Positions 374 through 20,759 of a stretch of DNA of 32,000 bases are shown here, one piece after another. Below the pieces are notes generated by a model. That model made no database searches. It was not told where the DNA came from and saw nothing but the letters and a program-made list of their open reading frames with translations. The stretch spans positions 2,100,001 to 2,132,000 of the forward strand of contig NC_009664.2 in assembly GCF_000017305.1 (NCBI RefSeq). Direction: 5' to 3'. Source of the stretch: Kineococcus radiotolerans SRS30216 = ATCC BAA-149 (GTDB taxonomy: Bacteria > Actinomycetota > Actinomycetes > Actinomycetales > Kineococcaceae). Numbering within the stretch: position 1 is the stretch's first letter; every line of letters starts with the position of its first letter. Made by a program: the position numbers and the translations under genes.

Positions 374-1027
374 TCAGCGGCGGTCCAGCCGCAGGACCCC
401 GTCCTGGCCGGCGGCGGTGCTCCCGTCCTCGCCGGTGGTGGTCCGCTCGACCAGCAGCTCGCGCGCGACGGTCCACTCCGCCTCGGGCAGGGCGAGGCGC
501 CGGCGCAGCTCGCCGGGGGAGGGCAGGTCGACCTCGGCGCCCTCGGCCCGCCAGCGCGCGGCCTGCTCCTCGGGGACGACGTGGTGGCCCAGGACGAGCA
601 GCGACCCGCCGGGGGCGACGGACCGCGCGGCGCGCGCGAGTACGGCCGTGCGGTCCAGGAAGGCGAAGGAGTGCAGGAAGGAGGCGGTGACGAGGTCGAA
701 GAGCCCCTCGGGGAAGGACTGCCCGAGGTCGTGGCGCTCGAAGCGGGTCAGGTCCCCGACCCCGGCCTCGGCGGCGTGGGCGGCGGCCCGGGCGATCGCG
801 GTGTCGGAGACGTCGACGCCGGTGACGCGCCAGCCGAGGCGGGCCAGGTGCAGGACGTCGCCGCCCTCCCCGCAGCCGAGGTCCAGGGCGGTCCCGGGGG
901 TGAGGTCGGCGATCGCGTCGACGAGGGCGGGGTTGGGGCGGCCGCTCCAGACGTGGCCGTGGCCGGAGGAGTACATCCCCTCCCACAGTTCGCGGGCGTC
1001 CCGGGCGGTGAGGTCGAAGTTCGGCAC
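374..1027 (-). CDS. Class I SAM-dependent methyltransferase
   Basis: 217-aa ORF with a GTG start at 1027. SAM-binding motif I is LDLGCGEGGD, followed by VTGVDVS, DLVTASFLHSF and PGGSLLVLG. Strong GC3 bias. Confidence 0.85.
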   Translation of the reverse strand: MPNFDLTARDARELWEGMYSSGHGHVWSGRPNPALVDAIADLTPGTALDLGCGEGGDVLHLARLGWRVTGVDVSDTAIARAAAHAAEAGVGDLTRFERHDLGQSFPEGLFDLVTASFLHSFAFLDRTAVLARAARSVAPGGSLLVLGHHVVPEEQAARWRAEGAEVDLPSPGELRRRLALPEAEWTVARELLVERTTTGEDGSTAAGQDGVLRLDRR

Positions 1028-1090
1028 CCCCCGATCGTGCGGCCCGCGCGCCGCGCGGTCGAGCCTCCTTGCCGACTCGGCAAGACCCGG

Positions 1091-1130
1091 CGGGACGGGG
1101 CGGGACGGGGCGGGACGGGGCGGGACGGGG
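1091..1130. repeat. Perfect tandem decamer CGGGACGGGG x4 (degenerate copies extend to ~1088-1140); G-quadruplex-capable
   Basis: Read directly: cgggacgggg cgggacgggg cgggacgggg cgggacgggg cggggcggcg. It lies in the 155-bp divergent intergenic region between the methyltransferase start (1027) and the ORF at 1183. Confidence 0.9.
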
Positions 1131-1145
1131 CGGGGCGGCGACGCG

Positions 1146-1174
1146 TCGACGGCGGGGCGCGTCGCACCTACACT
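1146..1174 (+). promoter_or_regulatory. Candidate housekeeping-type promoter: TCGACG (-35) N17 TACACT (-10), 8 nt before ATG 1183 (leaderless mRNA implied)
   Basis: -35-like TCGACG at 1146-1151 and a TAnnnT -10 (TACACT) at 1169-1174, with a 17-nt spacer. There is no Shine-Dalgarno before the ATG. An in-frame TGA at 1174-1176 means ATG 1183 is the first possible start. Confidence 0.3.
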
Positions 1175-1182
1175 GACGTTTC

Positions 1183-1503
1183 ATGCACGAAGGATCGTCG
1201 TCGGACGCGGCGCAGACCCCGCGCTCGCTGCAGCGTCCCCGGTCCCGCAACCGCTTCGTGGACCTCTTCCTCGACGCGGCGTTCAGCTTCACCGGCCCCG
1301 CCCAGGTGTCCCGGGACGAGGCACCCCCGCGCGGGCCGCGCACCGAGGAGGAGGCGCGAGCCGGGTACGCCCAGTGGGAACGGGTGACCCGCGGCGGCCA
1401 CACCTACCTCGTCGAGCGCCGGGTCCCCGCCGAGGACCCGGGCGAACCCGCAGGATCCGGGGAACCCGGGGAACCCGGGAGCTCCAGCACCTCCAGCAGC
1501 TGA
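1183..1503 (+). CDS. Hypothetical small protein (106 aa), no recognisable family
   Basis: About 90% G/C at third codon positions in this frame, whereas the antisense ORF 1168-1401 looks like noise. The last 100 nt overlap the 3' end of the convergent ligase gene. The C-terminal GEP/SS-rich tail may be non-functional. Confidence 0.4.
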   Translation: MHEGSSSDAAQTPRSLQRPRSRNRFVDLFLDAAFSFTGPAQVSRDEAPPRGPRTEEEARAGYAQWERVTRGGHTYLVERRVPAEDPGEPAGSGEPGEPGSSSTSSS

Positions 1504-2429
1504 TCGAACCCCCGGCCGATCGCCTCCCCGTCGATCGACCCGGGCAGGATCCGCACCTCCAGCACGTCGGGGCCCGGGCGCACGCCGAGGACCCGGGTGA
1601 GGTTCACGTCACTGAACTTCGTCACCCCCGTGCGGGCCGCGACCGCGCGCAGCGACGCCCAGTCCGGCCAGTCGGCGCGGACGAGTTCCACCAGGTCCGC
1701 GGGCAGCGACCCCAGCCGGGTGCAGCGCGGGTTGGTCCCGAACCGCTCCCGGAGCTCCTCGCGCCGCCCGGCGAAGGTGGACACGACGTGGCGGAACCTG
1801 GCCACGTCCCGGAACGGCCCGGCGTCGAGGTTCACGTGGACGGCCGCCTCGGCCGGGACGGTGAAACCCAGGTCCCGCGCGGGGGCGAGCAGTTCCTCCA
1901 GGTGCCGGACGTGGTCGCGCTCCCAGGGCGGGGTCACGACCTCGCAGGGGCGTTCGCGCTCCCCCGGCAGCGGGGCCGCCATCGCGATCGTCGCCCCGGC
2001 GCCGTCGTCGAGCCGGCGCACGCCCCGCACCTCGCGGACCGGTGCGCCGAACAGTTCCGCCACCGGGTCCAGCACCGACCCGATCCCCTCCGCCGGGTCG
2101 GCGTGGCGCTCGACGAGGCGCAGCAGGCGGGGGTCGTCGCTGAGGACCCGGTACCAGCCCGGGCGCGGCGGCGCGCCCGCGTCGAGGTCGGCGACGATCG
2201 TGGTGTCGTCCACCAGCGAGCACACCGGTGCCCCCGCCGCGTCGACGACGTCGAAGGCGGGGGTGAGGTGCCAGAACGCCGCCACCCCCGGCGTCGCGGA
2301 CGCCTCGGTGTCGACGTGGAACCTTCGGCGCACCGATCCCCCTGCGCGGGAGGCGATCTCCTGCGCGAGGTCGAGCCTGCTCGCCCCCGCGGGGGCGAGC
2401 AGCTCGACCTCGAAACCGGCGCGCACCAC
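1404..2429 (-). CDS. Glutamine-synthetase-like COOH-NH2 ligase of the putative amidoligase family (Pfam Amidoligase_2-like)
   Basis: 341 aa with a GTG start at 2429, 1 nt after the stop of the upstream gene. Motifs typical of the family: N-terminal GFEVELLAP, CEVVTPPWERDH, AAVHVNLDAGPF, KFSDVNLTRV and LEVRILPGSIDG. Low-complexity C-terminal tail SPGSPDPAGSPGSS. Confidence 0.75.
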   Translation of the reverse strand: MVRAGFEVELLAPAGASRLDLAQEIASRAGGSVRRRFHVDTEASATPGVAAFWHLTPAFDVVDAAGAPVCSLVDDTTIVADLDAGAPPRPGWYRVLSDDPRLLRLVERHADPAEGIGSVLDPVAELFGAPVREVRGVRRLDDGAGATIAMAAPLPGERERPCEVVTPPWERDHVRHLEELLAPARDLGFTVPAEAAVHVNLDAGPFRDVARFRHVVSTFAGRREELRERFGTNPRCTRLGSLPADLVELVRADWPDWASLRAVAARTGVTKFSDVNLTRVLGVRPGPDVLEVRILPGSIDGEAIGRGFDQLLEVLELPGSPGSPDPAGSPGSSAGTRRSTR

Positions 2430-2430
2430 G

Positions 2431-2991
2431 TCAGGGGGCGACCGGCAGGGTCTCGCCCGCGAGCAGGTCGCGCCCGCCGGTGACCTTCGCCTCCCAGGGG
2501 CTCACGTGCCAGATCCCGCCGAGGGCCACCGCGTCGTCGTAGGTGTACCCGGCGGCGAAGAACGCGTCGACCGCCGTGGACTCCTCCGTCGGGAGCTCGG
2601 AGACGGGAACGGTGGGGGCGGGAGCGGAACTGCCCGGCTCGATCGGCAGCGTCTCCCCCGCGGCCAGCTTCTCCCCGCCGGTGACCTTCGCCTCCCACGA
2701 GTCCTGCGCCCACTGCTTCCCGAGGACGACGGCGTCGTCGTAGGTGTAGCCCGCGTCGAAGAACACCTCGCGCGAGGCCTGGTCGGGGTCGACGGGTTCG
2801 TCGACGAACCCCGCGGGGGGCGCCTCTACGGCGGGGGCGGTGCTCGCCGCGCGGACGGGTTCCACGTCGGCGGAGTTGGCGTTCGCGTAGGCGGTGCCGC
2901 CGGCGAGGGCGATGCCCCCGGCCACGACGGTCGCAGTGACGATCCGCGCCGCGCGCCGGTTCGCCGGGGTCCTGGTCTCGTTGTCGCTCAT
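2431..2991 (-). CDS. Secreted or membrane-anchored protein with two copies of an unassigned ~43-aa Trp/Tyr-rich repeat (gene B)
   Basis: The internal ATG at 2991 of track ORF 2431-3522 gives 186 aa: MSDNETRTPANRRAARIVTATVVAGGIALAGGTAYA/NANS... (hydrophobic segment ending in AxA). Repeats at aa 74-116 and 141-183. The longer ORF version would overlap gene A and reads as Arg/Gly noise. Confidence 0.75.
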   Translation of the reverse strand: MSDNETRTPANRRAARIVTATVVAGGIALAGGTAYANANSADVEPVRAASTAPAVEAPPAGFVDEPVDPDQASREVFFDAGYTYDDAVVLGKQWAQDSWEAKVTGGEKLAAGETLPIEPGSSAPAPTVPVSELPTEESTAVDAFFAAGYTYDDAVALGGIWHVSPWEAKVTGGRDLLAGETLPVAP

Positions 2992-3000
2992 GCCGGGGAA

Positions 3001-3027
3001 GACGACGCGGGGGGCGGCGGGGTTGCC
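3001..3027 (-). promoter_or_regulatory. ECF-type promoter in front of gene B: GGCAAC (3027-3022) N17 CGTC (3004-3001), 9 nt before ATG 2991
   Basis: Minus-strand reading: GGCAACcccgccgccccccgcgtCGTCttccccggcATG. The geometry is identical, and the sequence nearly identical, to the element upstream of the sigma gene. Confidence 0.55.
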
Positions 3028-3032
3028 CCGGT

Positions 3033-3515
3033 TCACCGGGGGACCGGGAGTTCGTCGCCGTTCTGCAGCGCCTGCCCGCCGAGGGCCTTGGCCTCCCACG
3101 GGTCGACGTTCCAGAGCTCGCCCAGGGGCACCGCGTCCTCGTACACGTACCCCGAGTCGAAGAACACGTCCCGCGCGGCCTCCGCGTCCATCACCAGCAC
3201 CGGCGGTTCCGTCGCCACCCGTGACGCCTCGGGCGCCGGCGCCGTCGGGACGGGCGAGGTCACCGCGGTGCTCGACGGGGTCCCCGCCGGGGCGAGGGCC
3301 GGTGGCGGGGCGGAGCGGCTCGTGCCCGCCCACACCGCTCCCCCCGCGACGACGAGCGCGGCGGGCAGCGTCGCCAGCGCGCGCCGGCGCCGCAGCCGTC
3401 GCCGGCCCCCCTCGCGCGCGGCGCCGAGGAGGCCGTCCCCCGCCCGCACGTCGCGCACCGACGCGTCGAGCTCGCGACGCAGCCGGTCCTCCCAGCCGCT
3501 CAGCCGTTCGTCCAC
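3033..3515 (-). CDS. Single-pass membrane protein, candidate anti-sigma factor, with one copy of the ~43-aa repeat (gene A)
   Basis: 160 aa. GTG start at 3515 overlaps the sigma gene by 16 nt. Domain order: Arg-rich N-terminus (RRRLRRRR), TM helix ALATLPAALVVAGGAVWAG, Pro/Ala/Thr linker, then C-terminal repeat RDVFFDSGYVYEDAVPLGELWNVDPWEAKALGGQALQNGDELP. No HxxxCxxC zinc motif. Confidence 0.75.
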   Translation of the reverse strand: MDERLSGWEDRLRRELDASVRDVRAGDGLLGAAREGGRRRLRRRRALATLPAALVVAGGAVWAGTSRSAPPPALAPAGTPSSTAVTSPVPTAPAPEASRVATEPPVLVMDAEAARDVFFDSGYVYEDAVPLGELWNVDPWEAKALGGQALQNGDELPVPR

Positions 3516-4009
3516 CGCGCACCCACCCCTTCTCCGCTCGGCTCCCCCACCAGTGCCCGCAACGAGGCCAGCCCCTTGGAGGCCTGGCTCTTGACCGTCC
3601 CGCGCGTCACGTCGAGCTGGTCGGCGATCTGCTCCTCCGACCAGTCCTCGAAGTAGCGCAGGACGATGACGGCCCGCTGCCGCGGGGGCAGCCGGCGCAG
3701 CGCCTCGACGACCCGGGACCGTTCAGCGCGCTCGGCGGTGCCGTCGGGCACCGCCCGGTCGTGGTGGTCCTCGAAGCCGACCTCGCGGGGGCGGCGCGCC
3801 CGCGCCCGCCACCGGTCGGTGACCTTGCGGGTCAGGGCCGTGCGCGCGTAGGCGTGCGGGTCCTCGATGCGCCGCCAGCGGACGTACATCCGCTCCAGGA
3901 CGTCCTGGAGCAGGTCCTCGGCGTGACCGCGGTCCCCGGTCAGGAGCAGCGCGAAGCCCAGCAGCCGGTCGCTGCCGGTGCTCACGAACTCCTCGAAGGA
4001 ACCTTCCAC
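3500..4009 (-). CDS. ECF (sigma-70 group 4) RNA polymerase sigma factor, actinobacterial SigE-like
   Basis: 169 aa with a GTG start at 4009. Region 2 reads DRGHAEDLLQDVLERMYVRWRRI. Region 4 reads LPPRQRAVIVLRYFEDWSEEQIADQLDVTRGTVKSQASKGLASLR. Confidence 0.9.
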   Translation of the reverse strand: MEGSFEEFVSTGSDRLLGFALLLTGDRGHAEDLLQDVLERMYVRWRRIEDPHAYARTALTRKVTDRWRARARRPREVGFEDHHDRAVPDGTAERAERSRVVEALRRLPPRQRAVIVLRYFEDWSEEQIADQLDVTRGTVKSQASKGLASLRALVGEPSGEGVGARWTNG

Positions 4010-4018
4010 ACCGTTGCA

Positions 4019-4045
4019 GACGTCCGGGGGGCCCGCGGGGTTGCC
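4019..4045 (-). promoter_or_regulatory. ECF-type (autoregulatory) promoter: GGCAAC (4045-4040) N17 CGTC (4022-4019), 9 nt before GTG 4009
   Basis: Minus-strand reading: GGCAACcccgcgggccccccggaCGTCtgcaacggtGTG. This fits the classic ECF -35 GGAAC-like / -10 CGTC architecture. Confidence 0.55.
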
Positions 4046-4086
4046 TCGGAGCGCGGACCGGTCGCCGGTGCAGTCCGCGGCGGGGG

Positions 4087-4134
4087 TCGACGGCGCAAAC
4101 GGATAGTGCTACTTTCCGATAGTGCGAGTATCCG
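4087..4134 (+). promoter_or_regulatory. merR-family gene promoter/operator: TCGACG N17 TACTTT, 6 nt before GTG 4122, flanked by direct repeats GATAGTGC and an inverted repeat CGGATA/TATCCG
   Basis: -35-like element at 4087-4092 and -10 TAnnnT at 4110-4115. GATAGTGC occurs at 4102-4109 and 4118-4125 (the second copy contains the start codon). CGGATA at 4100-4105 pairs with TATCCG at 4129-4134. This is the lowest-GC patch of the intergenic region. Confidence 0.35.
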
Positions 4135-4769
4135 AGTTGGCCGAGCGAGCGGGCGTCCCCCTCTCCGCCGTGAAGTACTACCAGCGCGAGGGGCTGCTGC
4201 CCCCCGGCGTCCGGACCGCCCCCAACCAGGTCGCCTACGGCGACCCGCACGTGCGGCGCGTCCGGCTCATCCGCGCCCTCCTGGAGACGGGGGGCCTCTC
4301 CGTGGCGGCCACGAAGGAGGTCGTCGCCGCCCTCGACGCCGACGCGGCCCCGCTCGCCGAGGCGTTCGGCGTCACCCAGCGCGCCATGAGCGCCCGGCGC
4401 ACCCAGGAGTCCACGCCGAGCGCGGCCGCCCGCGCCCGCGTCGAGGCGCTCGCCGCCGCCCGCGGCTGGAACGTCACCGCCGGCAACCCCGGCGTCGACG
4501 CCGCCGCCCGCGCCCTCGACGGGCTGCGCGCCATCGGCTTCGACGCCCCCGACGCCTACCTCGAGGCCTACGCGGCCGCGGCCGCCACCGCCGCCGCCGC
4601 CGACCTCCACGCGCTCGCCGGGCGCGGTGACCGCGACGCCGTCGCGGAGCTCATGGTCGTCGGGACCGTCCTCGGCGACCCGCTCTTCGCCGGTCTGCGC
4701 CGCCTCGCCCACGAGGACGCCACCCACGCCCTCCTCCCCGCCCCCGAGCAGGAACGAGCCGAACCGTGA
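4122..4769 (+). CDS. MerR family transcriptional regulator
   Basis: 215 aa. N-terminal winged HTH: MRVSELAERAGVPLSAVKYYQREGLLPPGVRTAPNQVAYGDPHVRRVRLIRALLETGGLSVAATKEVV. Confidence 0.85.
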   Translation: MRVSELAERAGVPLSAVKYYQREGLLPPGVRTAPNQVAYGDPHVRRVRLIRALLETGGLSVAATKEVVAALDADAAPLAEAFGVTQRAMSARRTQESTPSAAARARVEALAAARGWNVTAGNPGVDAAARALDGLRAIGFDAPDAYLEAYAAAAATAAAADLHALAGRGDRDAVAELMVVGTVLGDPLFAGLRRLAHEDATHALLPAPEQERAEP

Positions 4770-5689
4770 TCCCACCCGCGCACGTCGTCCTCGGCGGCAA
4801 CGGCGTCGTCGGCCGCGAGACCCTCCGGGCCCTCCTCGCCGCCGGCCACGTCCCGGCCTCCGTCGGCCGCCGACCCCCCGCCGTCGAGGGGGTCGTGCCC
4901 GTCACCGCCGACCTCCTCGACCCCGCCGACGTCACCCGCGCCCTGCACGGGGCCGAGGTCGCCTACCTGGTGGCGGGACTGCCCTACTCCTCCCGCACGT
5001 GGGCGCGGCAGTGGCCGGTGATCGTCGGCAACGTCGCCGACGCCGCGCTCGCCGAGGGCACCCACCTCGTGCACCTCGACAACGTCTACGCCTACGGCCG
5101 CGTCGAGGGCGCCATGACCGAGGACACCCCGATCGCCCCGGTCAGCCGGAAGGGCCGCGTCCGGGCCGCCGCGCTGGACCTCCTCGCCGCCGCCGCCGCC
5201 CGCGGGCTCGTCGTGACCACCGCGCGCAGCGCCGACTTCTACGGCCCCGGCGCCTCGACCAGCGCGTTCAACACCTTCGCCCTGGACCGGATCGCCGCCG
5301 GGCGCACCGGCACCTGGCTCCTCGACGCCGACCAGCCCCACTCCCTCACCTACACCCCCGACGTCGGCGACGCCCTCGCCGTCCTCGGCACCGCGCCGCA
5401 GGCCCGCGGCCGCACCTGGCACCTGCCCACCGCCCCCGCCCTCACCGGCCGCGAGCACGTCCGTCTCGCCGCCGGCCCCGACGCCCGGACCGCCGTCATG
5501 GGCCTCACCGCGCTGCGGATCGGGGCCCTCTTCTCCACCGCCGCCCGCGAGACCCTGGAGATGAGCTACCAGCACACCGCCCCGTACGTCTTCGACTCCA
5601 CCGCCTTCGAGACCGCCTTCGGCCTCACCCCCACCCCGGCGGCGGAGGGCGTCGCCGCGGCGCTGGCCGCGGCGCGAGCGGGCTCGTGA
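4766..5689 (+). CDS. NAD(P)-binding epimerase/dehydratase-type (atypical SDR / NmrA-like) protein
   Basis: 307 aa. Rossmann motif VVLGGNGVVGRETLRALLAAGH. The GTG start overlaps the merR-family stop (GTGA at 4766-4769). Confidence 0.8.
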   Translation: MIPPAHVVLGGNGVVGRETLRALLAAGHVPASVGRRPPAVEGVVPVTADLLDPADVTRALHGAEVAYLVAGLPYSSRTWARQWPVIVGNVADAALAEGTHLVHLDNVYAYGRVEGAMTEDTPIAPVSRKGRVRAAALDLLAAAAARGLVVTTARSADFYGPGASTSAFNTFALDRIAAGRTGTWLLDADQPHSLTYTPDVGDALAVLGTAPQARGRTWHLPTAPALTGREHVRLAAGPDARTAVMGLTALRIGALFSTAARETLEMSYQHTAPYVFDSTAFETAFGLTPTPAAEGVAAALAAARAGS

Positions 5690-6645
5690 CGCTCACCGCG
5701 CTGCGCCGCGCCCACGCCTGGCACCGGCCGCTGACGACCGTCGCCGCCCTCGTCGCCGGGTGCGCGCTGGTCAGCGCGGCCGGTCTCGTCCTCGACCCCC
5801 GCGAGATCCTCGGCGCGCCCGCGTGGGCGAAACCGCTGAAGTTCTCCCTCTCCATCCTCGTCCATACCCTCACCTGGGCCTGGCTGATCGCCCACCTCCC
5901 CCGGTGGCGGGCGCCCGCCCACCGCCTCGGCACCGTCGTCGCCGTCACCCTCGCCGTCGAGCAGGTGCTCATCGTGGGCGCGGCCGCGAGCGGGACCACC
6001 AGCCACTTCAACGTCACCGACGGCCCGCACGCCACCGTCTGGGTGGTCATGGCCGTCTCCATCACGGTCATGTACCTCTGCACGTTCGCGCTCTCGGCCG
6101 CGGTGTTCCTCCTGCGCCTGCCCACCCCGGCCCTCACCCTCGCCGTGCGCGCCGGGGTCCTCGTCGCGCTCGCCGGGATCGGGGTCGCCTTCCTCATGAC
6201 CGCCCCCACCCCGGCGCAGCTCGCCGCACCCACCGGGGTCGTCGGCGCCCACGCCGTCGGCGTCGAGGACGGCGGGCCCGGCCTGCCGCTGCTGGGGTGG
6301 AGCACCACCGGGGGCGACCACCGCGTCGCGCACGCGGTCGGGATGCACGCCGTGCAGGTCCTGCCCCTCGCGGCGCTGCTGCTGGGCGCCCTGGCCCGCC
6401 GCGTCCCCCGCCTCGCCCCGCCGGCCGTGCAGGTCCGGCTCACCGCCACCGTCGCCGCCGCCTACGCCCTCGCGACCGGTCTGCTGACCCTGCAGGCGTC
6501 GCTCGGGCAGTCCGTCGCGCACCCCTCCGGCGTCGTCCTGCTCGCGGGCGGGGCGCTGGCCCTGGCCACCGCCGCGACCGCCGCCGCCGTCGTCGTCCGC
6601 GCCCCGCGGCCCCCCGCCGCGCGCCCCGCGGTGGCGGTCAGGTGA
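5686..6645 (+). CDS. Polytopic membrane protein of unknown function (~7 hydrophobic segments)
   Basis: GTG 5686 overlaps the upstream stop (GTGA). It is in frame with the 3' part of track ORF 4627-6645. The translation VTLTALRRAHAWHRPLTTVAALVAGCALVSAAGLVL...KPLKFSLSILVHTLTWAWLIAHL... is strongly hydrophobic, whereas the 5' part of that ORF is Arg/Pro noise. Confidence 0.7.
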   Translation: MTLTALRRAHAWHRPLTTVAALVAGCALVSAAGLVLDPREILGAPAWAKPLKFSLSILVHTLTWAWLIAHLPRWRAPAHRLGTVVAVTLAVEQVLIVGAAASGTTSHFNVTDGPHATVWVVMAVSITVMYLCTFALSAAVFLLRLPTPALTLAVRAGVLVALAGIGVAFLMTAPTPAQLAAPTGVVGAHAVGVEDGGPGLPLLGWSTTGGDHRVAHAVGMHAVQVLPLAALLLGALARRVPRLAPPAVQVRLTATVAAAYALATGLLTLQASLGQSVAHPSGVVLLAGGALALATAATAAAVVVRAPRPPAARPAVAVR

Positions 6646-8479
6646 CGTGCAGCGTGAACCAGACGCCCTTGCCGACGTCGTGCGCCCGGGTGGGCCACTG
6701 CACCCCCCAGTCGTCGGCGCAGGCCTGGACCAGGTGCAGGCCCCGCCCCGAGAGGGCCGACTCGTCCTGCTCCAGCAGCTCCGGGACGCGGTGGTTGTCG
6801 TCCCACACCTCCACCCGCAGCACCTCCGGGGTCGCGCGCACGGTGAGCAGGGTCTCGCTGCGGCCGTGCACGACGGCGTTGGTGACGAGCTCGCTGGTGA
6901 GCAGGACGGCGGTGTCGACGTCGGCGCCGGTCCAGCCGGAGCGGGTGCAGGTGCGCCGCACCACCTGCCGCGCCCGGGAGGGCGACTGCGGCTCGGCGGG
7001 CAGGGTCAGGGTGCGGGAGGCCACCGCCTCCGCCGGGGCCCGCCGGTCCCCCGGCGCGCCGGTCCCGTCCGCGGCCCGGCGGGCCCCCGCGCCGAGGACG
7101 ACGGCGAGCAGCAGCGTCCGGTCGTCCTCCACGCCCCGCACGTCGCCGGGGCCCCCGCCGGTGGCCGCCATCAGCTCCCGGGCGGCGGCCGCGGGGTCGG
7201 CCAGGTCCAGGGCGGCGAACCGCCCGGCCAGGCGCGCCAGCCCCGCGCCCAGCTCCTCCCCGCGGGTCTCGACCACCCCGTCGCTGTAGAGGAGCAGCGC
7301 GCTGCCGGCCCCCAGGTGGGCCCGGTGCTCGCGGCGCTCCACCGCCGGGTCGACGCCCAGGATCGGGTCGCGGTCGTCGAGCAGGCCCTCGTCGTCGGTG
7401 CCCGGGGCCCCGGCCGCGCGGGCCGCCGCCCCCGCGTCGCGGCTGCCCCCCAGGGCTCCGTCGCGCAGCAGGTCGACGCTGCGGTCGGGACGGCGCACCA
7501 GCGGCGAGGGGTGCCCGGCGCTGGCCCAGCGCACCGACACCCCCGCCGCGCCCTCGTCGTGCAGGACGGCCAGGACGACGGAGGCCAGGGTCCCCGGCTC
7601 CAGCGCGGTCAGCACCTCGTCGAGGTCGTGCAGCACCTCCCCCGCCGCCCGCTCGCTGCCCCAGACCACCCCGCGCAGCAGGACCCGCACCTGGCTCATC
7701 GCCGCCGCGGCCCGCTCGTCGTGGCCGGAGACGTCGCCGAGCACCAGCACCAGGTCCCCGGACCGGTTCTCGAAGGCGTCGTACCAGTCCCCGCCGATGT
7801 CGGCCGAGGCCTGCACCGGCTGGTAGCCCGCGGCGAGGGACAACCCGTCGCGCTCGGGCAGCACCGCCAGGGAGCTGCGCTGCAGCTGCGTGGACAGGCG
7901 CCGGACCCCCGTGGTCGCGGCCTCCTCCTCGCGGGTGGCCAGCAGCCGGGCCAGCGTCGGCGCGCACTGCGCCGCGAACGCGTCCAGGAGGGTCGCGGTC
8001 GCCGCGTCGAAGGGGCCCGGCTCCTCCCAGGAGAGGGCCAGGCTGCCGACGACGCTCCCCCCGGCGCGCAGCGGGAGCAGCGCCCAGCGGGGCCGGCCGG
8101 TCAGGTCGACGACGTCGGCCATCCGCGGGTGGTCCAGCACCGCGGCGGCGCGGTCGGGCAGGAGGCAGCGCACCCCGTCGCGGGCGGCGCGGATCGCCGG
8201 CAGGTCGCTGTCGCGGGGTTCGTCGGGGAAGCGGCCCGCGAAGCGGGGGTCCAGCGGGGCCGCGGCCAGCAACCGCCAGGTCCCCTCGGGGGTGGGCACC
8301 ACGACCCCGCACCCCGCGGCGGCGAAGACGGTGCGGGCGTGCCGCACGAGGCTGGTCTGGAACTCCTCGAGACCGGTGAGGGAGGAGAGCTCGACGGCGC
8401 AGCGGGCCAGCGCGCGCCACGTGGTGTCCGCGGCCGGCGGTCCACCGGCGGGACCGGGAGAACCGGGGGACCCGGCCAT
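6638..8479 (-). CDS. GAF - PP2C/SpoIIE phosphatase - HATPase_c (RsbW-like anti-sigma kinase domain) fusion protein
   Basis: ATG 8479 is preceded by GGAGGAGG; 613 aa. PP2C motifs DIGGDWYD, LGDVSGHD and LYSDGVVE. C-terminal ATPase motifs LLTSELVTNAVVHG and SGRGLHLVQACADDWGV. The N-terminal ~190 aa look GAF-like (WALLPLRAGGSVVGSLALSW). Confidence 0.85.
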   Translation of the reverse strand: MAGSPGSPGPAGGPPAADTTWRALARCAVELSSLTGLEEFQTSLVRHARTVFAAAGCGVVVPTPEGTWRLLAAAPLDPRFAGRFPDEPRDSDLPAIRAARDGVRCLLPDRAAAVLDHPRMADVVDLTGRPRWALLPLRAGGSVVGSLALSWEEPGPFDAATATLLDAFAAQCAPTLARLLATREEEAATTGVRRLSTQLQRSSLAVLPERDGLSLAAGYQPVQASADIGGDWYDAFENRSGDLVLVLGDVSGHDERAAAAMSQVRVLLRGVVWGSERAAGEVLHDLDEVLTALEPGTLASVVLAVLHDEGAAGVSVRWASAGHPSPLVRRPDRSVDLLRDGALGGSRDAGAAARAAGAPGTDDEGLLDDRDPILGVDPAVERREHRAHLGAGSALLLYSDGVVETRGEELGAGLARLAGRFAALDLADPAAAARELMAATGGGPGDVRGVEDDRTLLLAVVLGAGARRAADGTGAPGDRRAPAEAVASRTLTLPAEPQSPSRARQVVRRTCTRSGWTGADVDTAVLLTSELVTNAVVHGRSETLLTVRATPEVLRVEVWDDNHRVPELLEQDESALSGRGLHLVQACADDWGVQWPTRAHDVGKGVWFTLHVT

Positions 8480-8642
8480 CGCGCCTCCTCCGCGGGTCGC
8501 GTCGCGCGGGGTGCGTCGAGGTCGGCCGCCGGACGAGTCCACCACGACGGCGGCACCGTCGCCAGCCCCCGCCCCGCCCGCACCGCACGGACCGCGCCGG
8601 GGGTGGGCCCGGGCCGGTGCGGGGCCCCGGCATGCTGGGCCC

Positions 8643-9425
8643 GTGAGCGACGCCGCCCCCGCGCAGCCCCCGCCCGCGGGACCTCCCGCCGGCCCCCCGG
8701 ACCGCGCCGCCGTCGTCCGGCAGGGCCTGTCCGTGGCGGTGGCGACCGGCCTGTACGGGGTCAGCTTCGGCGCGCTGAGCGTCACCAGCGGGCTGAGCGT
8801 GCTGCAGACCTGCCTGCTGTCGCTGCTGCTGTTCAGCGGCGGGTCCCAGTTCGCGCTCGTCGGCGTGCTCGGGGGCGGCGGCACCGGCGGCGCCGCCCTC
8901 GCCGCGTCCTCCCTGCTGGGGGTGCGCAACGCGCTGTACGGCCTGCAGCTGAGCCCCACGATGCGCCCGCGCGGGTGGCGGCGCGTCGTCGTCCCCCAGC
9001 TGACCATCGACGAGTCCACGGCCGTCGCCGTCGCCCAGCCCGTGCGGGCGCTGCGGCGGCTGGGGTTCTGGGTGACCGGGCTCGGCGTCTACGCCGGGTG
9101 GAACCTCACGACCCTCCTCGGGGCCCTGGCCGGGGATGCCCTCGGCGACCCGCAGCGCTTCGGCCTCGACGCGGCGGCCGCGGCGTCCTTCGCGGCGCTG
9201 CTGTGGCCGCGGGTGCGCGGGCGCGAGCCCGTCGCCGTCGCCGTCGTCGCCGTGCTGCTGACGACGGTCCTGGTGCCGGTGGTCCCCCCCGGGCTGCCGG
9301 TGGTGGCCGCGGCCCTGGCCGGTTCGGTGCTGGCGTGGTCCTGGCGGGCCCGCCCGCCCGGCCCGTCCACCCCGCCGGGCGGGGACGCGCCGGGCCGGGA
9401 CGCGGCGGGCGGGAGCGCGGCGTGA
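8643..9425 (+). CDS. azlC: AzlC family branched-chain amino acid exporter subunit
   Basis: GTG 8643 is in frame with the 3' part of ORF 7890-9425. The translation GLSVAVATGLYGVSFGALSVTSGLSVLQTCLLSLLLFSGGSQFALVGVL... is typical of AzlC. Confidence 0.8.
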   Translation: MSDAAPAQPPPAGPPAGPPDRAAVVRQGLSVAVATGLYGVSFGALSVTSGLSVLQTCLLSLLLFSGGSQFALVGVLGGGGTGGAALAASSLLGVRNALYGLQLSPTMRPRGWRRVVVPQLTIDESTAVAVAQPVRALRRLGFWVTGLGVYAGWNLTTLLGALAGDALGDPQRFGLDAAAAASFAALLWPRVRGREPVAVAVVAVLLTTVLVPVVPPGLPVVAAALAGSVLAWSWRARPPGPSTPPGGDAPGRDAAGGSAA

Positions 9426-13521: not shown

Positions 13522-14145
13522 TCACCGCGCGGCCAGGGCGACCGCGTGCGCGGTCAGGTCGCGCACGGCGTCGAAGTCGCCGGCGGCGAGGAGGTCGCGG
13601 GGCACCATCCACGACCCGCCGACGGCGGCGACGCTCGGCACGGCCAGCCACGGGGCGAGGTCGTCGGGGCCGATGCCGCCGGTGGGGACGAACCGGACCC
13701 CGCCGAAGGGGGCGGCGAGCGCCCGGACGGCGGCGGGGCCGCCGGAGGTGGCGGCGGGGAAGAACTTCACCGTGCTCAGGCCCAGTTCGAGGGCGGCCTG
13801 CACCTCGGTGGCGGTGACGGCGCCGGGCAGGACCGCCACCCCGTGCTCCAGGCAGCGCTCGACGACGGCCCGGCTGGTGCCCGGGCTGACGACGAAGCGG
13901 GCGCCCGCGGCGACGGCCTCGTCGACCTGGGCGGGGGTGAGGACGGTGCCGGCGCCGACGAGCACCCCGCCGTGGTCGGCCATGGCGCGCACCGCGTCGG
14001 CGGCGGCGGGGGTGCGGAAGGTGACCTCGGCGACGGGCAGCCCGCCGGCGACGAGGGCGTCGGCCAGGGCGGGCGCCGCGGCGGCGTCGTCGAGGACGAC
14101 GACGGGCACGAGGCGGGCGGCGGTGACGCGGTCGAGGACGTCCAC
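13522..14145 (-). CDS. eda: KDPG / 4-hydroxy-2-oxoglutarate aldolase
   Basis: GTG 14145 is preceded by AGGAGGAA; 207 aa. Contains LPVAEVTFRTPAA, VGAGTVL, and the Schiff-base lysine context STVKFFPA. Confidence 0.85.
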   Translation of the reverse strand: MDVLDRVTAARLVPVVVLDDAAAAPALADALVAGGLPVAEVTFRTPAAADAVRAMADHGGVLVGAGTVLTPAQVDEAVAAGARFVVSPGTSRAVVERCLEHGVAVLPGAVTATEVQAALELGLSTVKFFPAATSGGPAAVRALAAPFGGVRFVPTGGIGPDDLAPWLAVPSVAAVGGSWMVPRDLLAAGDFDAVRDLTAHAVALAAR

Positions 14146-14189
14146 GGGCGGTTCCTCCTGGGGGTTCGGGCGGGGACGGGGGGTCGGGG

Positions 14190-14945
14190 TCACCGGGCCA
14201 GCCACCCGCCGTCGACGGCGAGGACGTGCCCGTGCACGTAGGCGGCCGCGGGGGAGGCGAGGAAGACGACGACGTCGCCGACGTCCTGCGGCGTCCCCCA
14301 CCGCCCGGCGGGGATCCGCACGGAGAGCTGCTCGCGGCGGACGGGGTCGGCGAGCAGGGCCTCGTTCATGTCGGTGGCCATGTACCCGGGGGCCACGGCG
14401 TTGACGCCGACCCCGCGCCCGGCCCACTCGTTGCACAGCGCCTTCGTCAGCTGCGCCACCGCGCCCTTGCTGGCGGCGTAGGCGGGCACGGTGAGCCCGC
14501 CCTGGAAGGACAGCAGGGAGGCGATGTTCACCACGCGCCCCTCCCCGCGCTCCAGCATGGGCGCGCCGAAGAGCTGGCAGAGCTGGAACACCGCCCGCAG
14601 GTTCACGTCGAGGACGCGGTCGAAGGCGTCGAGGGGGAACTCGACGGCGGGGTGGCGCTCCTGGGTGCCGGCGTTGTTGACGAGGACGTCCACGCGGTGC
14701 TCGGCGAGGACGGCGGCCGCGGTCGCGGCGACGGCGGCGGCGTCGGCGAGGTCGACGGCGTGGTGCACCAGGCGCCGCCCGCAGCGCGCGGCCTCCTCCG
14801 CGAGGTCCGCGGCGGGCGCGCCGCGGCCCAGGACGACGACGTCGGCGCCGGCCCGCAGCAGGGACGTGGAGATCCCCAGGCCCAGGCCGCGCCCCCCGCC
14901 GGTGACGAGGGCCGTGCGGCCGGTGAGGTCGAAGGGGTGGTTCAC
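14190..14945 (-). CDS. kduD: SDR oxidoreductase, probable 2-dehydro-3-deoxy-D-gluconate 5-dehydrogenase (KduD)
   Basis: 251 aa. GTG 14945 is preceded by AGGAGGA. Contains TALVTGGGRGLGLG, NNAG, and YAASKGAV (catalytic YxxxK). Context with kduI, eda and kdgK. Confidence 0.8.
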   Translation of the reverse strand: MNHPFDLTGRTALVTGGGRGLGLGISTSLLRAGADVVVLGRGAPAADLAEEAARCGRRLVHHAVDLADAAAVAATAAAVLAEHRVDVLVNNAGTQERHPAVEFPLDAFDRVLDVNLRAVFQLCQLFGAPMLERGEGRVVNIASLLSFQGGLTVPAYAASKGAVAQLTKALCNEWAGRGVGVNAVAPGYMATDMNEALLADPVRREQLSVRIPAGRWGTPQDVGDVVVFLASPAAAYVHGHVLAVDGGWLAR

Positions 14946-17799: not shown

Positions 17800-19113
17800 T
17801 CAGGGAGCGGCGATCAGGCCGAGGGCCTGGGGCAGCCAGAGGGAGAGGCCGGGGGTGAAGGTGACGACGACCAGGGTGATGACCAGGGCGCCGAAGTGGG
17901 GCAGGAGCTGACGGATGACCGGTTCGAGCCGGCAGCCGGCGATCTTCGCGCCGACGAACAGCACGGTGCCCACCGGCGGCGTGATCGTCCCGATGCTCAG
18001 GTTGTAGATCATGATGATGCCGAAGTGGATCGGGTCCACCCCGAAGCTCGTGACCACGGGCAGGAAGATCGGCGTGAAGATCAGCACCGCCGGCGTGGCG
18101 TCCATGAAGCAGCCGACCACGAGCAGGACGACGGTGATGAGCAGCAGGATGACCACCGGGTTCTCGCTGATGCCGAACATCAGCGACGAGGCCAGCTCGG
18201 GGATCTGGGCGAAGGACAGGACGAAGCCCATGACCGTCGACACGGCGATGAGGAACATGACCACGGCGGTCGTGCGCGTGGAGTCCAGCAGGATCCGCGG
18301 CAGGTCGCGCAGCGCCAGGCTGCGGTACACCACGGCGAGGACGGCCGAGTAGACCACCGCGATCACCGCGGCCTCCGTGGAGGTGAACCAGCCGGCCAGG
18401 ATCCCGCCGATGACCACCACGACGAGCAGCAGCGCGGGGACGGAGTCCAGGACGACCTTGACCCGCTGCGCCAGCGGGGGCTGCGCGGTGACCTTCAGCT
18501 CCGGGTGCTTGCGGGCGTACCACCAGACGACGACCATGGTGGCGACCGTCCAGAGGATGCCGGGCAGGTAGCCGGCGACGAAGAGCGCGGCGACCGAGGT
18601 GCTCGACACCAGCGAGTACACGATCATCAGGTTGCTCGGCGGGATGAGCATCCCCCCGGGCGAGGAGGCGATGTTCGCCGCCGCCGCGAAGTTCTTGTCG
18701 TAGCCCTCCTTGGCCTGCATCGGGGCCAGCGTCGAGCCGACGGCGGCCGCGGCGGCGATGGAGGAACCCGAGACGGCTCCGAAGAGGGCGTTCGCGGCAA
18801 TGTTCGTCTGCGCCAGGGAACCGGGCATCCGGCCCACCATGACCTTGCCGGCGTCGATGAGGCGCAGGGCTATGCCGCCGTTGTTCATGATGACGCCGGC
18901 GAGGACGAAGAACGGGATGGCCAGCAGGGGGAAGGAGTTGATCCCCCGGAACATCTGCTGCGCGGCGGTGAGGGCGCCGGTGCCGGTGCCGACGATGACG
19001 AACATCGCCGCGACGCTCGACACCCCGACGCCGATGCTGATGGGTGCGCCGATGGCCAGGAACAGGGCGATGCCCCCGATGAGGACGAGCCCTGCGAGTG
19101 CTGCGGGATCCAC
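17800..19113 (-). CDS. dctM: TRAP transporter large permease
   Basis: 437 aa, highly hydrophobic, with typical DctM blocks (FRGINSFPLLAIPFFVLAG, GSSIAAAAAVGS). The GTG start is preceded by GGGAGGA. Confidence 0.9.
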   Translation of the reverse strand: MDPAALAGLVLIGGIALFLAIGAPISIGVGVSSVAAMFVIVGTGTGALTAAQQMFRGINSFPLLAIPFFVLAGVIMNNGGIALRLIDAGKVMVGRMPGSLAQTNIAANALFGAVSGSSIAAAAAVGSTLAPMQAKEGYDKNFAAAANIASSPGGMLIPPSNLMIVYSLVSSTSVAALFVAGYLPGILWTVATMVVVWWYARKHPELKVTAQPPLAQRVKVVLDSVPALLLVVVVIGGILAGWFTSTEAAVIAVVYSAVLAVVYRSLALRDLPRILLDSTRTTAVVMFLIAVSTVMGFVLSFAQIPELASSLMFGISENPVVILLLITVVLLVVGCFMDATPAVLIFTPIFLPVVTSFGVDPIHFGIIMIYNLSIGTITPPVGTVLFVGAKIAGCRLEPVIRQLLPHFGALVITLVVVTFTPGLSLWLPQALGLIAAP

Positions 19114-19125: not shown

Positions 19126-19632
19126 TCAGACGGTTTCGACTTCGGCGTCCGGCTCGAACGGCGGCTCGTCGCCGCGGGCGATCCGGATCGCGTGGTGGAC
19201 GGTGTAGAGGGCGGTGAGGACACCGCAGATCGGCAGGGCGAGGTAGAGCTGCCCGACGTTGAACGGCAGACCGGTCACCTTCTGGTCCCAGGCGAGGTCG
19301 ACGACCTGGCCGCCGCCCCACGCGAGGGCGACGAGGGCGAACGCCAGGACGGAGAGCTGGACGACCAGGGCCAGCACCCGCTGCACGCCGGGAGGTGCCT
19401 TCTGCACCAGCAGTTCCACCCCCACGTGACCGCGCTCGCCGAACACCAGCGCGGACCCCAGGAGGCCGAGCCAGATGAACAGGTACTTCGCCAGTTCCTC
19501 CGACCAGGCGCTGGGGGCGTCGAGGACCTGGCGGGTGAACACCTGCCACACGACGTCGAGCACGAGCGCGGCGAACAGCACCACGCACACCCAGCTCAGG
19601 ACGCGGTCGAGGGCGTTCTTCGCCGCGGTCAT
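19126..19632 (-). CDS. dctQ: TRAP transporter small permease
   Basis: ATG 19632 gives MTAAKNALDRVLSWVCVVLFAALVLDVVWQVFTRQVL... with 4 TM segments. An alternative in-frame GTG at 19713 overlaps the dctP stop (GTGA) and would add 27 aa. Confidence 0.8.
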   Translation of the reverse strand: MTAAKNALDRVLSWVCVVLFAALVLDVVWQVFTRQVLDAPSAWSEELAKYLFIWLGLLGSALVFGERGHVGVELLVQKAPPGVQRVLALVVQLSVLAFALVALAWGGGQVVDLAWDQKVTGLPFNVGQLYLALPICGVLTALYTVHHAIRIARGDEPPFEPDAEVETV

Positions 19633-19709
19633 CGGTCCGGTCCGCGGCCGGGCCGGGGAGGCGCCGGCCGGCGGGTCGAGCTGTTCGGTCCCACCACCGT
19701 CCACGGCGT

Positions 19710-20759
19710 TCACCCCGCGGCCGCACGGGTCTTGGCGTGGAGGTCGCGCACGACGTCGTTGGTCAGCTTGGCCTCGGTCAGCGGTTCGATCGCCGCGTCG
19801 AAGGCCTCCTTGTCGACCTCGTTGAACACCGCGCCCGCGTCCTCCGCGGCCTTCTTGGCCCGGACGATCTCGTCCTCCCACAGCGCGCCCTCCTCCTCGA
19901 CGGCGGTGGCGAGCTCCTCCTCGAAGATCGTCCGCACGTCCTCGGGCAGGGAAGCCATGACGGTGGGGTTGGTGATGAGGTAGTCGGGGAGCATGAGGTG
20001 GCGGGTGTAGCTGTAGAACTGCGCGACCTCGGCGTGCTTGGAGTTGGCGTAGGTCAGTTCGTTGTTCTCGGCGCCGTCGATGACGCCGGACTGGATGGCG
20101 GTGTAGACCTCGCCCATGCCCATGGGGGTCCCGTTGCCCCCCATGAGCCGGATCATCTCGAGGTTGGTGTCGGACTCGATGACGCGGATCTTCATGCCGG
20201 CCATGTCGGCGGGGGTCGTGATGGCCCTCTCGGAGTTGTACATCGAGCGCACGCCGCCGTGGAACCCGGCGAGCACCGTCAGGTTCTGGTCCTCCAGGGA
20301 GGAGTACAGCTCGGAGACGATCCCGGGGTCGTTGGTCACCGCGCGCTGGTGCTCCTGGGAGTCGAACACGAAGGGCAGGTTGAAGACGACGAAGTTCGGT
20401 TCGTAGTTCTCCATCAGGGGGGAGGCGACCATCGCGAACTGGATGGTCCCGGCCTGGACGAGTTCGATGGTCTCCTTCTGCGCCCCGAGGGTCTCGTTGG
20501 GGAAGACATCGACGTCGTACTCCCCCCCGGTGCGTTCCTTGATGCGTTCGCCCATGGCGCTGAGGGCGACGAACTGCGGGTGGGCCTCGGACTGGTTGAA
20601 GGCGAGCTTGAAGACGTTCTCGGCGGCGGGGCCGGCGGCGGCGCTGCCGCCCGCGGTCGCCTCGGTGGCCCGCGTGCCGCTCCCGGCGCTGCACCCGGCG
20701 AGGGTGAGGGCGCCGATCCCGAGGAGGGCCGTGACCGATCTGCGCGTGTACTGCCGCAT
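19710..20759 (-). CDS. dctP: TRAP transporter solute-binding lipoprotein (DctP family)
   Basis: ATG 20759 is preceded by AAGGAG. Lipobox reads MRQYTRRSVTALLGIGALTLAGCSAG. The body is DctP-like (QFVALSAMGERIKERTGG, FHGGVRSMY). Confidence 0.9.
   Translation of the reverse strand: MRQYTRRSVTALLGIGALTLAGCSAGSGTRATEATAGGSAAAGPAAENVFKLAFNQSEAHPQFVALSAMGERIKERTGGEYDVDVFPNETLGAQKETIELVQAGTIQFAMVASPLMENYEPNFVVFNLPFVFDSQEHQRAVTNDPGIVSELYSSLEDQNLTVLAGFHGGVRSMYNSERAITTPADMAGMKIRVIESDTNLEMIRLMGGNGTPMGMGEVYTAIQSGVIDGAENNELTYANSKHAEVAQFYSYTRHLMLPDYLITNPTVMASLPEDVRTIFEEELATAVEEEGALWEDEIVRAKKAAEDAGAVFNEVDKEAFDAAIEPLTEAKLTNDVVRDLHAKTRAAAG

Follow-up and report, generated by a model that had tools for sequence, protein, structure and literature searches.

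An Amidoligase_2-type ligase and its helical-repeat partner in a candidate extracytoplasmic function sigma factor operon of Kineococcus radiotolerans

Enzymes of the Amidoligase_2 family belong to the broad class of glutamine synthetase (GS)-like ligases and are described from phages, plasmids, and proteobacteria/firmicutes, where they are found in the context of a GATase-like peptidase or an AIG2-like cyclotransferase. We know of no member of the family that has been characterized biochemically, and a literature search found no characterized Amidoligase_2 enzyme. The present study concerns a ligase of this family encoded by the actinobacterium Kineococcus radiotolerans SRS30216 = ATCC BAA-149 (contig NC_009664.2), at the end of a compact set of four genes that starts with the gene of an extracytoplasmic function (ECF) sigma factor. 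The two genes in between, A and B, encode proteins that share a helical repeat. The locus lies in a stretch of 32,000 nucleotides (positions 2,100,001 to 2,132,000 of the forward strand), which was analyzed as a whole and is called the window below; all coordinates are those of the window unless a contig is named. The ligase is of the same enzyme family as the known systems, with the same strand-borne Glu/His/Arg motifs and a predicted structure whose top viral matches are phage 'Amidoligase' proteins, whereas its partner here is a helical-repeat protein, probably exported. Also unlike the known systems, the cassette formed by ligase and repeat protein is chromosomal, occurs in several phyla and, in Actinobacteria, appears to be under ECF control.

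On the regulatory side, the closest described systems are sigmaV-RsiV and sigmaP-RsiP, which respond to lysozyme and to beta-lactams, respectively (PMC4183432, PMC8844934). In these systems, as in the Kineococcus locus, the sigma factor carries only the sigma2 and sigma4 regions, the gene of a membrane protein is coupled downstream, this protein has its N-terminus inside and an extracytoplasmic sensor, and the promoter is made up of two blocks. The Kineococcus locus differs from them by its undescribed repeat sensor, by a segment of about 45 residues that matches no anti-sigma profile and by an amidoligase as the regulated enzyme. In addition, its sensor domain is found separately, in a free and probably exported protein that is the partner of the ligase outside Actinobacteria. 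A further parallel is found in SigI-RsgI, where the ectodomain of the anti-sigma factor is paralogous to modules of exported proteins of the same regulon. In Clostridium thermocellum, the carbohydrate-binding modules of the RsgI anti-sigma factors are of the same kinds as those in the secreted proteins under their control. However, SigI belongs to another sigma family, the RsgI sensors are carbohydrate-binding modules or enzymes, and the output consists of secreted glycoside hydrolases and not of a cytoplasmic ligase. In a full-text literature search, no publication came up that connects an amidoligase to an ECF sigma factor or describes the repeat, a passing mention in surveys of ECF groups or of amidoligases being possible, and the ECF reclassification paper mentions no ligase in its main text. 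An Amidoligase_2 enzyme under ECF control was considered undescribed in the original prediction, a first reading of the window made from its letters and open reading frames (ORFs), and the search returned no earlier description.

The four genes are all on the minus strand (Table 1). The sigma and A reading frames share 16 nt, the gap between A and B measures 41 nt, given a B start at ATG 2991, and the GTG of the ligase gene is only 1 nt past the TGA of B; the four genes are probably co-transcribed. A public homologue of B from K. radiotolerans (P0121, 201 aa, 99% identical, annotated as a hypothetical protein) implies an alternative start at GTG 3036, overlapping the stop codon of A. ATG 2991 is preferred because it better fits an internal promoter motif described below. 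The sigma protein matches the Pfam families Sigma70_r2, Sigma70_r4_2, and Sigma70_ECF, with sigma2 and sigma4 regions and no sigma3 region, and scores 170.2 bits against TIGR02983 SigE-fam_strep (cutoff 141.55).

Much of the original prediction stands at this level. The layout and coordinates of the four genes agree with the ORF list and the sequence, and the assignment of ECF regions 2 and 4 agrees with the Pfam matches and with TIGR02983. Translation and a hidden Markov model (HMM) of the repeat, made from its three copies in the window, confirm the architecture proposed for A, namely an Arg-rich N-terminus (residues 1-45), one hydrophobic span, a Pro/Ala/Thr linker, and one repeat, as well as that proposed for B, a hydrophobic segment ending AYA/NA followed by two repeats. 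B had also been called a paralogue of the sensor domain of A, and BLASTP aligns its residues 7-117 with residues 39-158 of A (41% identity over 128 aa, E = 2e-18). Finally, the four motifs by which the ligase had been recognized are present and lie on predicted beta-strands (E4-11, E161-165, E196-202, and E289-296).

Table 1. Coordinates of the genes, protein segments, and promoter motifs at the Kineococcus radiotolerans locus.
Feature	Coordinates	Strand	Length or residues	Remarks
ECF sigma gene	GTG 4009 to TGA 3500	minus	169 aa	
Gene A	GTG 3515 to TGA 3033	minus	160 aa	
A membrane span	3324..3380	minus	residues 46-64	ALATLPAALVVAGGAVWAG; predicted; preceded by RRRLRRRR
A single repeat	3036..3194	minus	residues 108-160	HMM domain match
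Gene B	ATG 2991 to TGA 2431	minus	186 aa	
B hydrophobic segment	2884..2943	minus	residues 17-36	ends AYA before NA; read from translation
B repeat 1	2635..2793	minus	residues 67-119	HMM match; three-helix unit
B repeat 2	2434..2592	minus	residues 134-186	HMM match; three-helix unit reaching the protein C-terminus
Amidoligase_2 ligase gene	GTG 2429 to 1404	minus	341 aa	
ECF-type promoter motif GCAAC-N17-CGTC	4019..4044	minus		upstream of sigma gene; pattern match
Second GCAAC-N17-CGTC copy	3001..3026	minus		inside A-B gap; exact-pattern match
SAM-dependent methyltransferase	374-1027	minus		376 nt downstream of ligase
MerR-family regulator	4122-4769	plus		divergent from sigma gene
NAD-dependent epimerase/dehydratase	4766-5689	plus		overlaps MerR gene by 4 nt

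The association of repeat protein and ligase extends far beyond K. radiotolerans. In Actinobacteria, scanning one genome per species gave 80 loci with a relative of the ligase. In 79 of them, a profile scan places the end of a repeat-bearing ORF at most 116 nt from the ligase start, the usual distance being about 11 nt, and in 73, tblastn with the window proteins finds a sigma gene alongside the ligase. By these counts the arrangement of the locus is far beyond chance, and the synteny that the original prediction had put forward for related genomes is recovered for the repeat protein as for the sigma factor. Its four-gene unit is therefore real, whereas its module of separate A and B proteins does not hold as the general form, since most genomes have a single protein with two to five repeats. 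Such one-gene architectures carry three repeats in 46 loci, two in 19, four in six, and five in one. Only five loci, all of the K. radiotolerans clade, show the split into one plus two repeats, and a split into two plus three occurs in two further loci. In other genera, the 2-5-repeat proteins encoded after sigma are homologues of A from end to end. Judged by this distribution, the A/B split is a derived state of one Kineococcus clade.

Other gene orders are also observed. In Promicromonospora iranensis, a B-like protein is followed by the ligase, sigma, and an anti-sigma factor with repeats, the ligase stop codon overlapping the sigma start; the order in Humibacter and Quadrisphaera is similar. 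Cellulomonas fimi, an Egibacteraceae metagenome-assembled genome (MAG), and another actinobacterial MAG have a B-like protein and the ligase only, and no sigma gene is found within 6-7 kb of these cassettes.

Outside Actinobacteria, the pair generally occurs in this reduced form. Three of four divergent repeat proteins traced to their contigs are encoded directly upstream of an Amidoligase_2 gene (loci L083, L085, and L088), and the three ligases are 42-49% identical to the window enzyme. The L085 contig has a GC content of 43%, and contigs carrying a sigma-free cassette span 43-72%. Relatives retrieved with the ligase profile are named from Nostoc, Calothrix, Scytonema, Rivularia, Fischerella, Anabaena, Kofleriaceae, and 'Deltaproteobacteria'. 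In Nostoc sp. CENA543 (2 repeats), Calothrix parasitica (2 repeats), and a 'Deltaproteobacteria' MAG (4 repeats), the next gene upstream of the ligase is that of a repeat protein with a signal peptide. A metagenome scan yielded 80 further non-actinobacterial loci, with GC contents of 0.35-0.70. Repeats are found near the ligase, within 1-1.5 kb, in 63 of these loci: upstream on the same strand within 1 kb in 43, downstream on the same strand within 1 kb in 17, and on the opposite strand within 1.5 kb in 3. No repeat was detected in the other 17, 14 of which are flanked by under 1 kb of DNA on one side or both. A sigma factor is suggested by one weak match among the 80 loci (L101).

When the neighboring ORFs of 87 non-actinobacterial loci are clustered, the ligase is recovered in 86 and the repeat protein in 67, and the next real family reaches 8. 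Hence no third conserved gene, whether exporter, hydrolase, or rhomboid, is present in more than 8 of the 87 loci. Neither a GATase-like nor an AIG2-like gene is a recurrent neighbor in this set, and a Pfam scan finds neither in the neighborhood of the cassette in the window, in line with their absence as first noted.

From this comparison we firmly conclude that repeat protein and ligase constitute an ancient two-gene unit, retained independently in several lineages. As judged from its distribution, this pairing with an exported repeat protein is older and more tightly conserved than the link to sigma. The original prediction, which saw the ligase as the cytoplasmic output, needs correction on this point in view of the pairs that occur without sigma in several phyla. 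Actinobacteria seem to have placed the repeat on the ectodomain of a putative anti-sigma factor, the unit coming under the corresponding ECF sigma. Ligase and repeat protein almost certainly work together in an envelope process and, given the position of the repeat on the putative anti-sigma ectodomain, their relation would be what the sigma pathway reads out.

Two observations on individual non-actinobacterial loci may be recorded. In L083, a high-GC contig, a rhomboid intramembrane protease gene (2377-3444 of that locus) comes right after the pair of repeat-protein and ligase genes; it does not recur elsewhere. In L072 (5971-9172), an Oscillatoriales orthologue of the ligase, 45% identical to the window enzyme, has no repeat protein detectable nearby. 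The gene after it encodes a 666-aa PGA_cap (poly-gamma-glutamate capsule-type) protein, and the genes before it, on the opposite strand, encode an RTX/BOF protein and a two-component system.

The repeat itself forms a family without described relatives. The three copies in the window, one in A and two in B, show 49-57% mutual identity. AlphaFold2, with an alignment of 106 sequences, predicts a three-helix unit of about 45 aa with a pLDDT of about 95. In B, the modeled helices comprise residues 69-79, 84-94, and 98-110 in repeat 1 and residues 135-146, 151-161, and 165-177 in repeat 2, the 63 N-terminal residues being modeled as disordered. Among 53 non-redundant repeats, positions G15, Y16, A21, L24, W28, K36, G40, and P50 are invariant. 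The Lys is thus invariant, an acidic residue two positions ahead of the conserved Ala is near-invariant, and both persist in the most divergent repeats, those of cyanobacteria and of the 'Deltaproteobacteria' MAG. The 53 repeats gave no meaningful Pfam match, to a repeat or binding family or otherwise, even at E <= 10, and Foldseek against the Protein Data Bank (PDB) returned just generic three-helix matches (POU, homeodomain, UBA) with E > 1. A UBA-like fold is not claimed from such low-score hits. The length of about 44 aa and the '...G..LP' ending first recall LysM or another known wall-binding repeat. This assignment was rejected in view of the Pfam result, and since the predicted all-alpha unit cannot be reconciled with the beta-alpha-alpha-beta fold of LysM.

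Searching 1.84 billion representative proteins with a profile of the repeat retrieves 765 clusters (50% identity) at E <= 0.001. The 150 repeat proteins listed are 113-642 aa long with 2-9 tandem repeats each, which would leave little room for a fused enzymatic domain. Counting listed profile matches together with B homologues, 126 family proteins have an A-like layout, with a cytoplasmic segment of more than 30 aa, one membrane span, and repeats, and 80 have a B-like layout, in which the first 30 aa contain a signal peptide or anchor and repeats follow. The last repeat forms the C-terminus in 187 of the 265 family proteins with a detected repeat. The repeat proteins are thus probably exported.

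Some members of the family stand apart. The repeat proteins of L083, L085, L088, and L090 alternate two subtypes ('YTYCDA...' and 'C.F...G[FY].[FY].D..') with regularly spaced Cys residues, which we read as forming disulfides and hence as a sign of an extracytoplasmic location. In the Nostoc and Calothrix repeats, a Trp takes the first Cys position ('YDYWDA'). P0276 (L086, 5915-7843), the 642-aa protein with 9 repeats, has no hydrophobic segment, and no Amidoligase_2 gene is found within its 10-kb contig; the repeat may serve here in the cytoplasm or in some other different way.

Within the window, gene A is the candidate sensor. By the positive-inside rule, its N-terminus would be inside and its C-terminus outside. 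The position of the gene, its translational overlap with the sigma gene, and the topology of the product point to a putative anti-sigma factor of an unclassified type. Class I anti-sigma domains (ASDI, including the zinc-binding ZAS) have about 80-90 aa and four helices, with or without an HxxxCxxC motif. A was not retained as a recognizable member of this class: no profile in Pfam or NCBIfam, including known anti-sigma domains, matches it at E <= 0.01, the segment of about 45 residues before its membrane span is short, and no Cys/His motif is present.

The alignment of B with A spans the Arg-rich stretch, the hydrophobic span, the linker, and the repeat. As it begins at residue 39 of A, B can be described as a paralogue of A without the first 38 or so residues and with one extra repeat, and the part of A that is absent from B is probably the one that binds sigma. 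Following the AXA rule, the hydrophobic segment of B would be a signal peptide or a membrane anchor. Tat export was considered and rejected as a general feature of B: an RR pair is present in the Kineococcus and Cellulomonas versions and absent from those of Promicromonospora, Nostoc, Calothrix, and the 'Deltaproteobacteria' MAG. Neither A nor B has a match in Pfam, NCBIfam, PADLOC, PHROG, or the PDB sequence set.

The ligase matches PF12224 Amidoligase_2 with 50.6 bits (cutoff 22, E = 3.2e-13) over profile positions 3-168 of 245; its cyanobacterial orthologue in L072 aligns to positions 2-243 of 245, and all 240 listed homologues carry a precomputed PF12224 assignment. One search at E <= 1e-10 places more than 1,200 protein clusters in the orthologue group. 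The AlphaFold2 model has a pLDDT of 93 and a pTM of 0.89. In agreement with the Pfam assignment, the top Foldseek matches of this model in BFVD are phage 'Amidoligase' proteins (E = 2.3e-7, probability 1.00, TM-score 0.47). Against the PDB, the best Foldseek TM-score remains below 0.25 and no sequence match is obtained. Across 81 orthologues, E163, H198, E291, and R293 do not vary, and conservation reaches at least 90% for E7 and E9. By analogy with glutamine synthetase, these strand-borne Glu, His, and Arg residues would be metal and ATP-phosphate ligands, and with its catalytic-type residues intact the enzyme looks active. No signal peptide is present, and the ligase is therefore taken as cytoplasmic. 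NCBIfam, PADLOC, and PHROG gave no match, so that membership in a defense-system or phage family was set aside and the enzyme receives no housekeeping assignment. The last 30 or so residues (1404-1500; ELPGSPGSPDPAGSPGSSAGTRRSTR) are of low complexity, poorly conserved, and modeled with a pLDDT below 50, and it is here that orthologues vary in length.

Control of these genes by the ECF sigma is suggested by promoter motifs (Table 1). Upstream of the sigma gene, the CGTC block of a GCAAC-N17-CGTC motif stops 9 nt before GTG 4009, a distance implying a leaderless or near-leaderless transcript. Its two blocks correspond to the AAC-like -35 and CGT-like -10 elements of autoregulatory ECF promoters. 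The GCAAC-N17-CGTC form is common to the Kineococcus loci. Actinoplanes and its relatives have a TGCAC(A/G) -35 block, then about 16 nt and CGTC, at a similarly short distance from the start codon. Using one degenerate pattern, 70 related loci, and 200 shuffles, a two-block motif is found upstream of sigma in 68 of the 70, whereas the shuffled sequences average 3.3 and never exceed 9. The second copy, in the A-B gap, likewise stops 9 nt before a start codon, ATG 2991, and a copy is present at this place in 7 out of 7 related loci having two repeat genes. At the motif level, these data argue that the four-gene operon is autoregulated, that B and the ligase have their own sigma-dependent and probably leaderless transcript, and that ATG 2991 is the genuine start codon of B. 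On account of the second copy, B and the ligase appear directly sigma-dependent, and the ECF control of the ligase originally proposed thereby gains in silico support from two sites.

In the Actinoplanes and related loci (L023-L080), an A-rich tract (GAAAAA/GAAAAT) stands out from the GC-rich DNA about 45-60 nt upstream of the sigma start, directly upstream of the -35-like TGCACA block; it may be UP-element-like. A third match in the window (24842-24868, minus strand) is probably not a promoter: its spacer is N18, it can be translated as part of a hydrophobic coding region, and L004 has a similar sequence outside synteny. Chance alone should give about 1.3 matches to GCAAC-N16-18-CGTC, and the match was treated as such. 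Sigma-70-type promoters and intrinsic terminators were not detected in 900-4300, a result that is uninformative at 77% GC.

What the pair does can be read in several ways. The reading that we tentatively favor, with a probability of about 0.4, sees the repeats as multivalent binding modules for an amide-linked surface determinant made by the ligase and read by sigma. The ligase would use ATP to install an amide-linked group on an envelope precursor or small exported metabolite, which would reach the surface by general routes. Outside the membrane, the repeats would then bind this determinant as multivalent modules. In Actinobacteria, the same repeat would be fused to a single-pass anti-sigma factor, gene A in Kineococcus, through which the ECF sigma would read the state of the repeat ligand. 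By driving its own gene, A, B, and the ligase from ECF-type promoters, sigma would complete a loop that feeds back on the output of the ligase. Within the K. radiotolerans clade, B would serve under its own promoter copy as a non-signaling binder of, or competitor for, the same ligand.

Binding of the ligase product by the repeats is made plausible by the fact that they are confidently predicted folded domains, arranged in tandem, probably exported, in some cases with probable disulfides, and apparently used as an anti-sigma sensor. The sharing of binding modules between RsgI-type sensors and their regulon supports this reading by analogy. A comparable logic links SLH domains with the pyruvyl transferase CsaB, where tandem extracytoplasmic binders recognize a ligand made by a co-encoded envelope-precursor enzyme; there is no sequence or fold relationship with the present proteins. 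If the binding reading is true, a cell-wall or surface modification would be common to actinomycetes, filamentous cyanobacteria, and some myxobacterium-like lineages.

Several points weigh against it. None of the known anti-sigma domain profiles matches A, and with about 45 aa its cytoplasmic segment is small compared with class I anti-sigma domains. No exporter is encoded in the cassette, so that the product would depend on general routes out of the cell. Proteins composed of binding modules alone would have no obvious payload. The Foldseek search of the PDB provided no informative relative for either the ligase or B. Finally, the strict conservation of just two genes, the invariant Lys, and the near-invariant acidic residue would fit an enzyme-substrate pair equally well.

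This last point leads to the strongest competing explanation, somewhat unlikely in our view, according to which the repeat proteins are substrates of the ligase and would be covalently modified by it in the cytoplasm, ahead of their export by Sec. The reaction could attach a carboxylate or an amino acid to the invariant Lys, attach an amine to Asp/Glu, or form a Lys-Asp isopeptide. The anti-sigma factor would bear sentinel substrate repeats, and sigma would report whether modification succeeds. Across phyla, conservation is limited to these two genes, which occur in both possible orders and in many cases with just a few nucleotides between them. The variation in repeat number, 2 to 9, is what a repeated acceptor motif would lead one to expect, and the Lys and acidic residues are kept even in the most divergent repeats. 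The Pfam description of PF12224 predicts a role in peptide or protein modification, and the same prediction was reportedly made by Iyer, Abhiman, Burroughs and Aravind in 2009.

A precedent for a Lys acceptor comes from the actinobacterial enzyme PafA, which belongs to the GS-like class of carboxylate-amine ligases. PafA, the Pup ligase, modifies protein lysines (PMC3511204), showing that GS-like ligases can act on such residues. It is nevertheless of a different family, no Pup-like donor gene is present here, and the targets would be exported instead of cytoplasmic. Graspetide clusters, which make omega-ester/amide peptides, also combine a ligase with a partner that carries a variable number of repeats containing Lys and Asp/Glu. 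However, their ligase has an ATP-grasp and not a GS-like fold, and their partners are leader-peptide precursors, whereas folded domains with Sec signals or anchors are found here. A graspetide-type cluster of ribosomally synthesized and post-translationally modified peptides was accordingly rejected for this locus, the ligase being an Amidoligase_2 member and the partners folded proteins with signal peptides or membrane anchors. Klebsiella CfmP was likewise discarded as a related enzyme, as it is an unrelated ATP-grasp enzyme.

Four observations speak against modification of the repeats. They are predicted to be stable folded three-helix domains, while Sec-type signal peptides or an N-in/C-out topology would require the unfolded chain to be modified before export. 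At most Actinoplanes loci the anti-sigma factor itself would be the sole possible substrate, and the ligase orthologues of L072, L097, L110, and L145 apparently have no repeat partner. In its specific form, with an Amidoligase_2 enzyme dedicated to exported repeats, an amide adduct or isopeptide at Lys or Asp, and sentinel copies on the anti-sigma factor that monitor capacity, this explanation is rather unlikely. If true, it would represent a new post-translational modification system for bacterial surface proteins in several phyla, with an ECF sigma that would monitor modification capacity by means of the sentinel repeats.

The combination of an ECF sigma, an anti-sigma factor, and an enzyme is also typical of inducible resistance, as in sigmaV-RsiV and sigmaP-RsiP. 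The repeats of A could bind an external toxin or antibiotic with an amine or carboxylate group, the anti-sigma factor release sigma, the induced ligase inactivate by amide formation what is imported, and B sequester the compound outside; B, with its own sigma-type promoter and without the N-terminal segment of A, would fit an induced decoy. We regard such a sense-and-neutralize function as improbable. The sigma-free cassette is the widespread form, in very different organisms with GC contents of 35-70%, which favors an endogenous partner over one shared external toxin, and no importer or efflux gene is conserved nearby.

Alternatively, and with still less probability, the ligase could produce a diffusible amide signal, with the repeats of A as receptor, B as carrier, and sigma providing positive feedback as in quorum sensing. 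A synthase and a receptor-regulator would then be autoregulated within one operon, and carriers of the cassette are mostly multicellular or developmental (filamentous cyanobacteria, the 'Deltaproteobacteria' MAG, a Kofleriaceae MAG, and sporangium-forming actinomycetes). In most phyla, however, the cassette has no attached regulator, and we know of no signal molecule from any Amidoligase_2 enzyme. Such an autoinducer loop would also be a special case of the favored binding reading and not a separate mechanism. That the ligase is simply co-located or co-expressed with a sigma/anti-sigma pair and acts on an unrelated cytoplasmic metabolite would agree with a cytoplasmic enzyme and extracytoplasmic repeats, but it is very improbable, since chance or hitch-hiking does not suffice to explain an adjacency kept across phyla, GC contents of 0.35-0.70, and three gene orders.

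Whatever the reaction, the locus appears to be new in two respects: an undescribed sensor domain of anti-sigma type is combined with an orphan enzyme as output in an ECF operon, and sensor and enzyme recur as a cassette in several phyla. The cassette gives the orphan Amidoligase_2 family a defined partner. The repeat represents a new family of probably extracytoplasmic domains with two uses, one in free exported proteins and the other as the sensor of a putative anti-sigma factor. The relationship between the two also looks like a regulatory capture, in which a sigma/anti-sigma pair appears to have adopted as its sensor a domain of the pre-existing cassette itself.

The genes that flank the four-gene set seem to be outside the module. 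The methyltransferase gene adjoins the ligase only in close relatives (L004 and L006) among the loci searched and is for this reason left out of the conserved unit. On the other side, the MerR/epimerase pair shares a 112-nt intergenic region with the sigma gene, and neither gene is found beside the cassette in any of the 80 actinobacterial loci. The proteins of the window show 96-99% identity to sequences of the Kineococcus radiotolerans type. The GC content of the window is 68-81% (1-kb windows), and window-wide RNA scans found no Rfam family and no tRNA.

Farther away, about 2.6 kb from the ECF operon, a 793-aa ORF (6638-9019, minus strand) combines GAF, SpoIIE (PP2C phosphatase), and HATPase_c_2 (anti-sigma kinase-like) domains. 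It resembles a fused partner-switching regulator; no evidence was found that ties it to the module. Between 13522 and 20694, the minus strand encodes a KDPG/KHG aldolase (13522-14436), the TRAP transporter protein DctM (17800-19113), and a DctQ-containing gene product (19126-20694). Over 18-21 kb, the GC content dips to 0.68-0.70, as compared with 0.75-0.80 elsewhere in the window.

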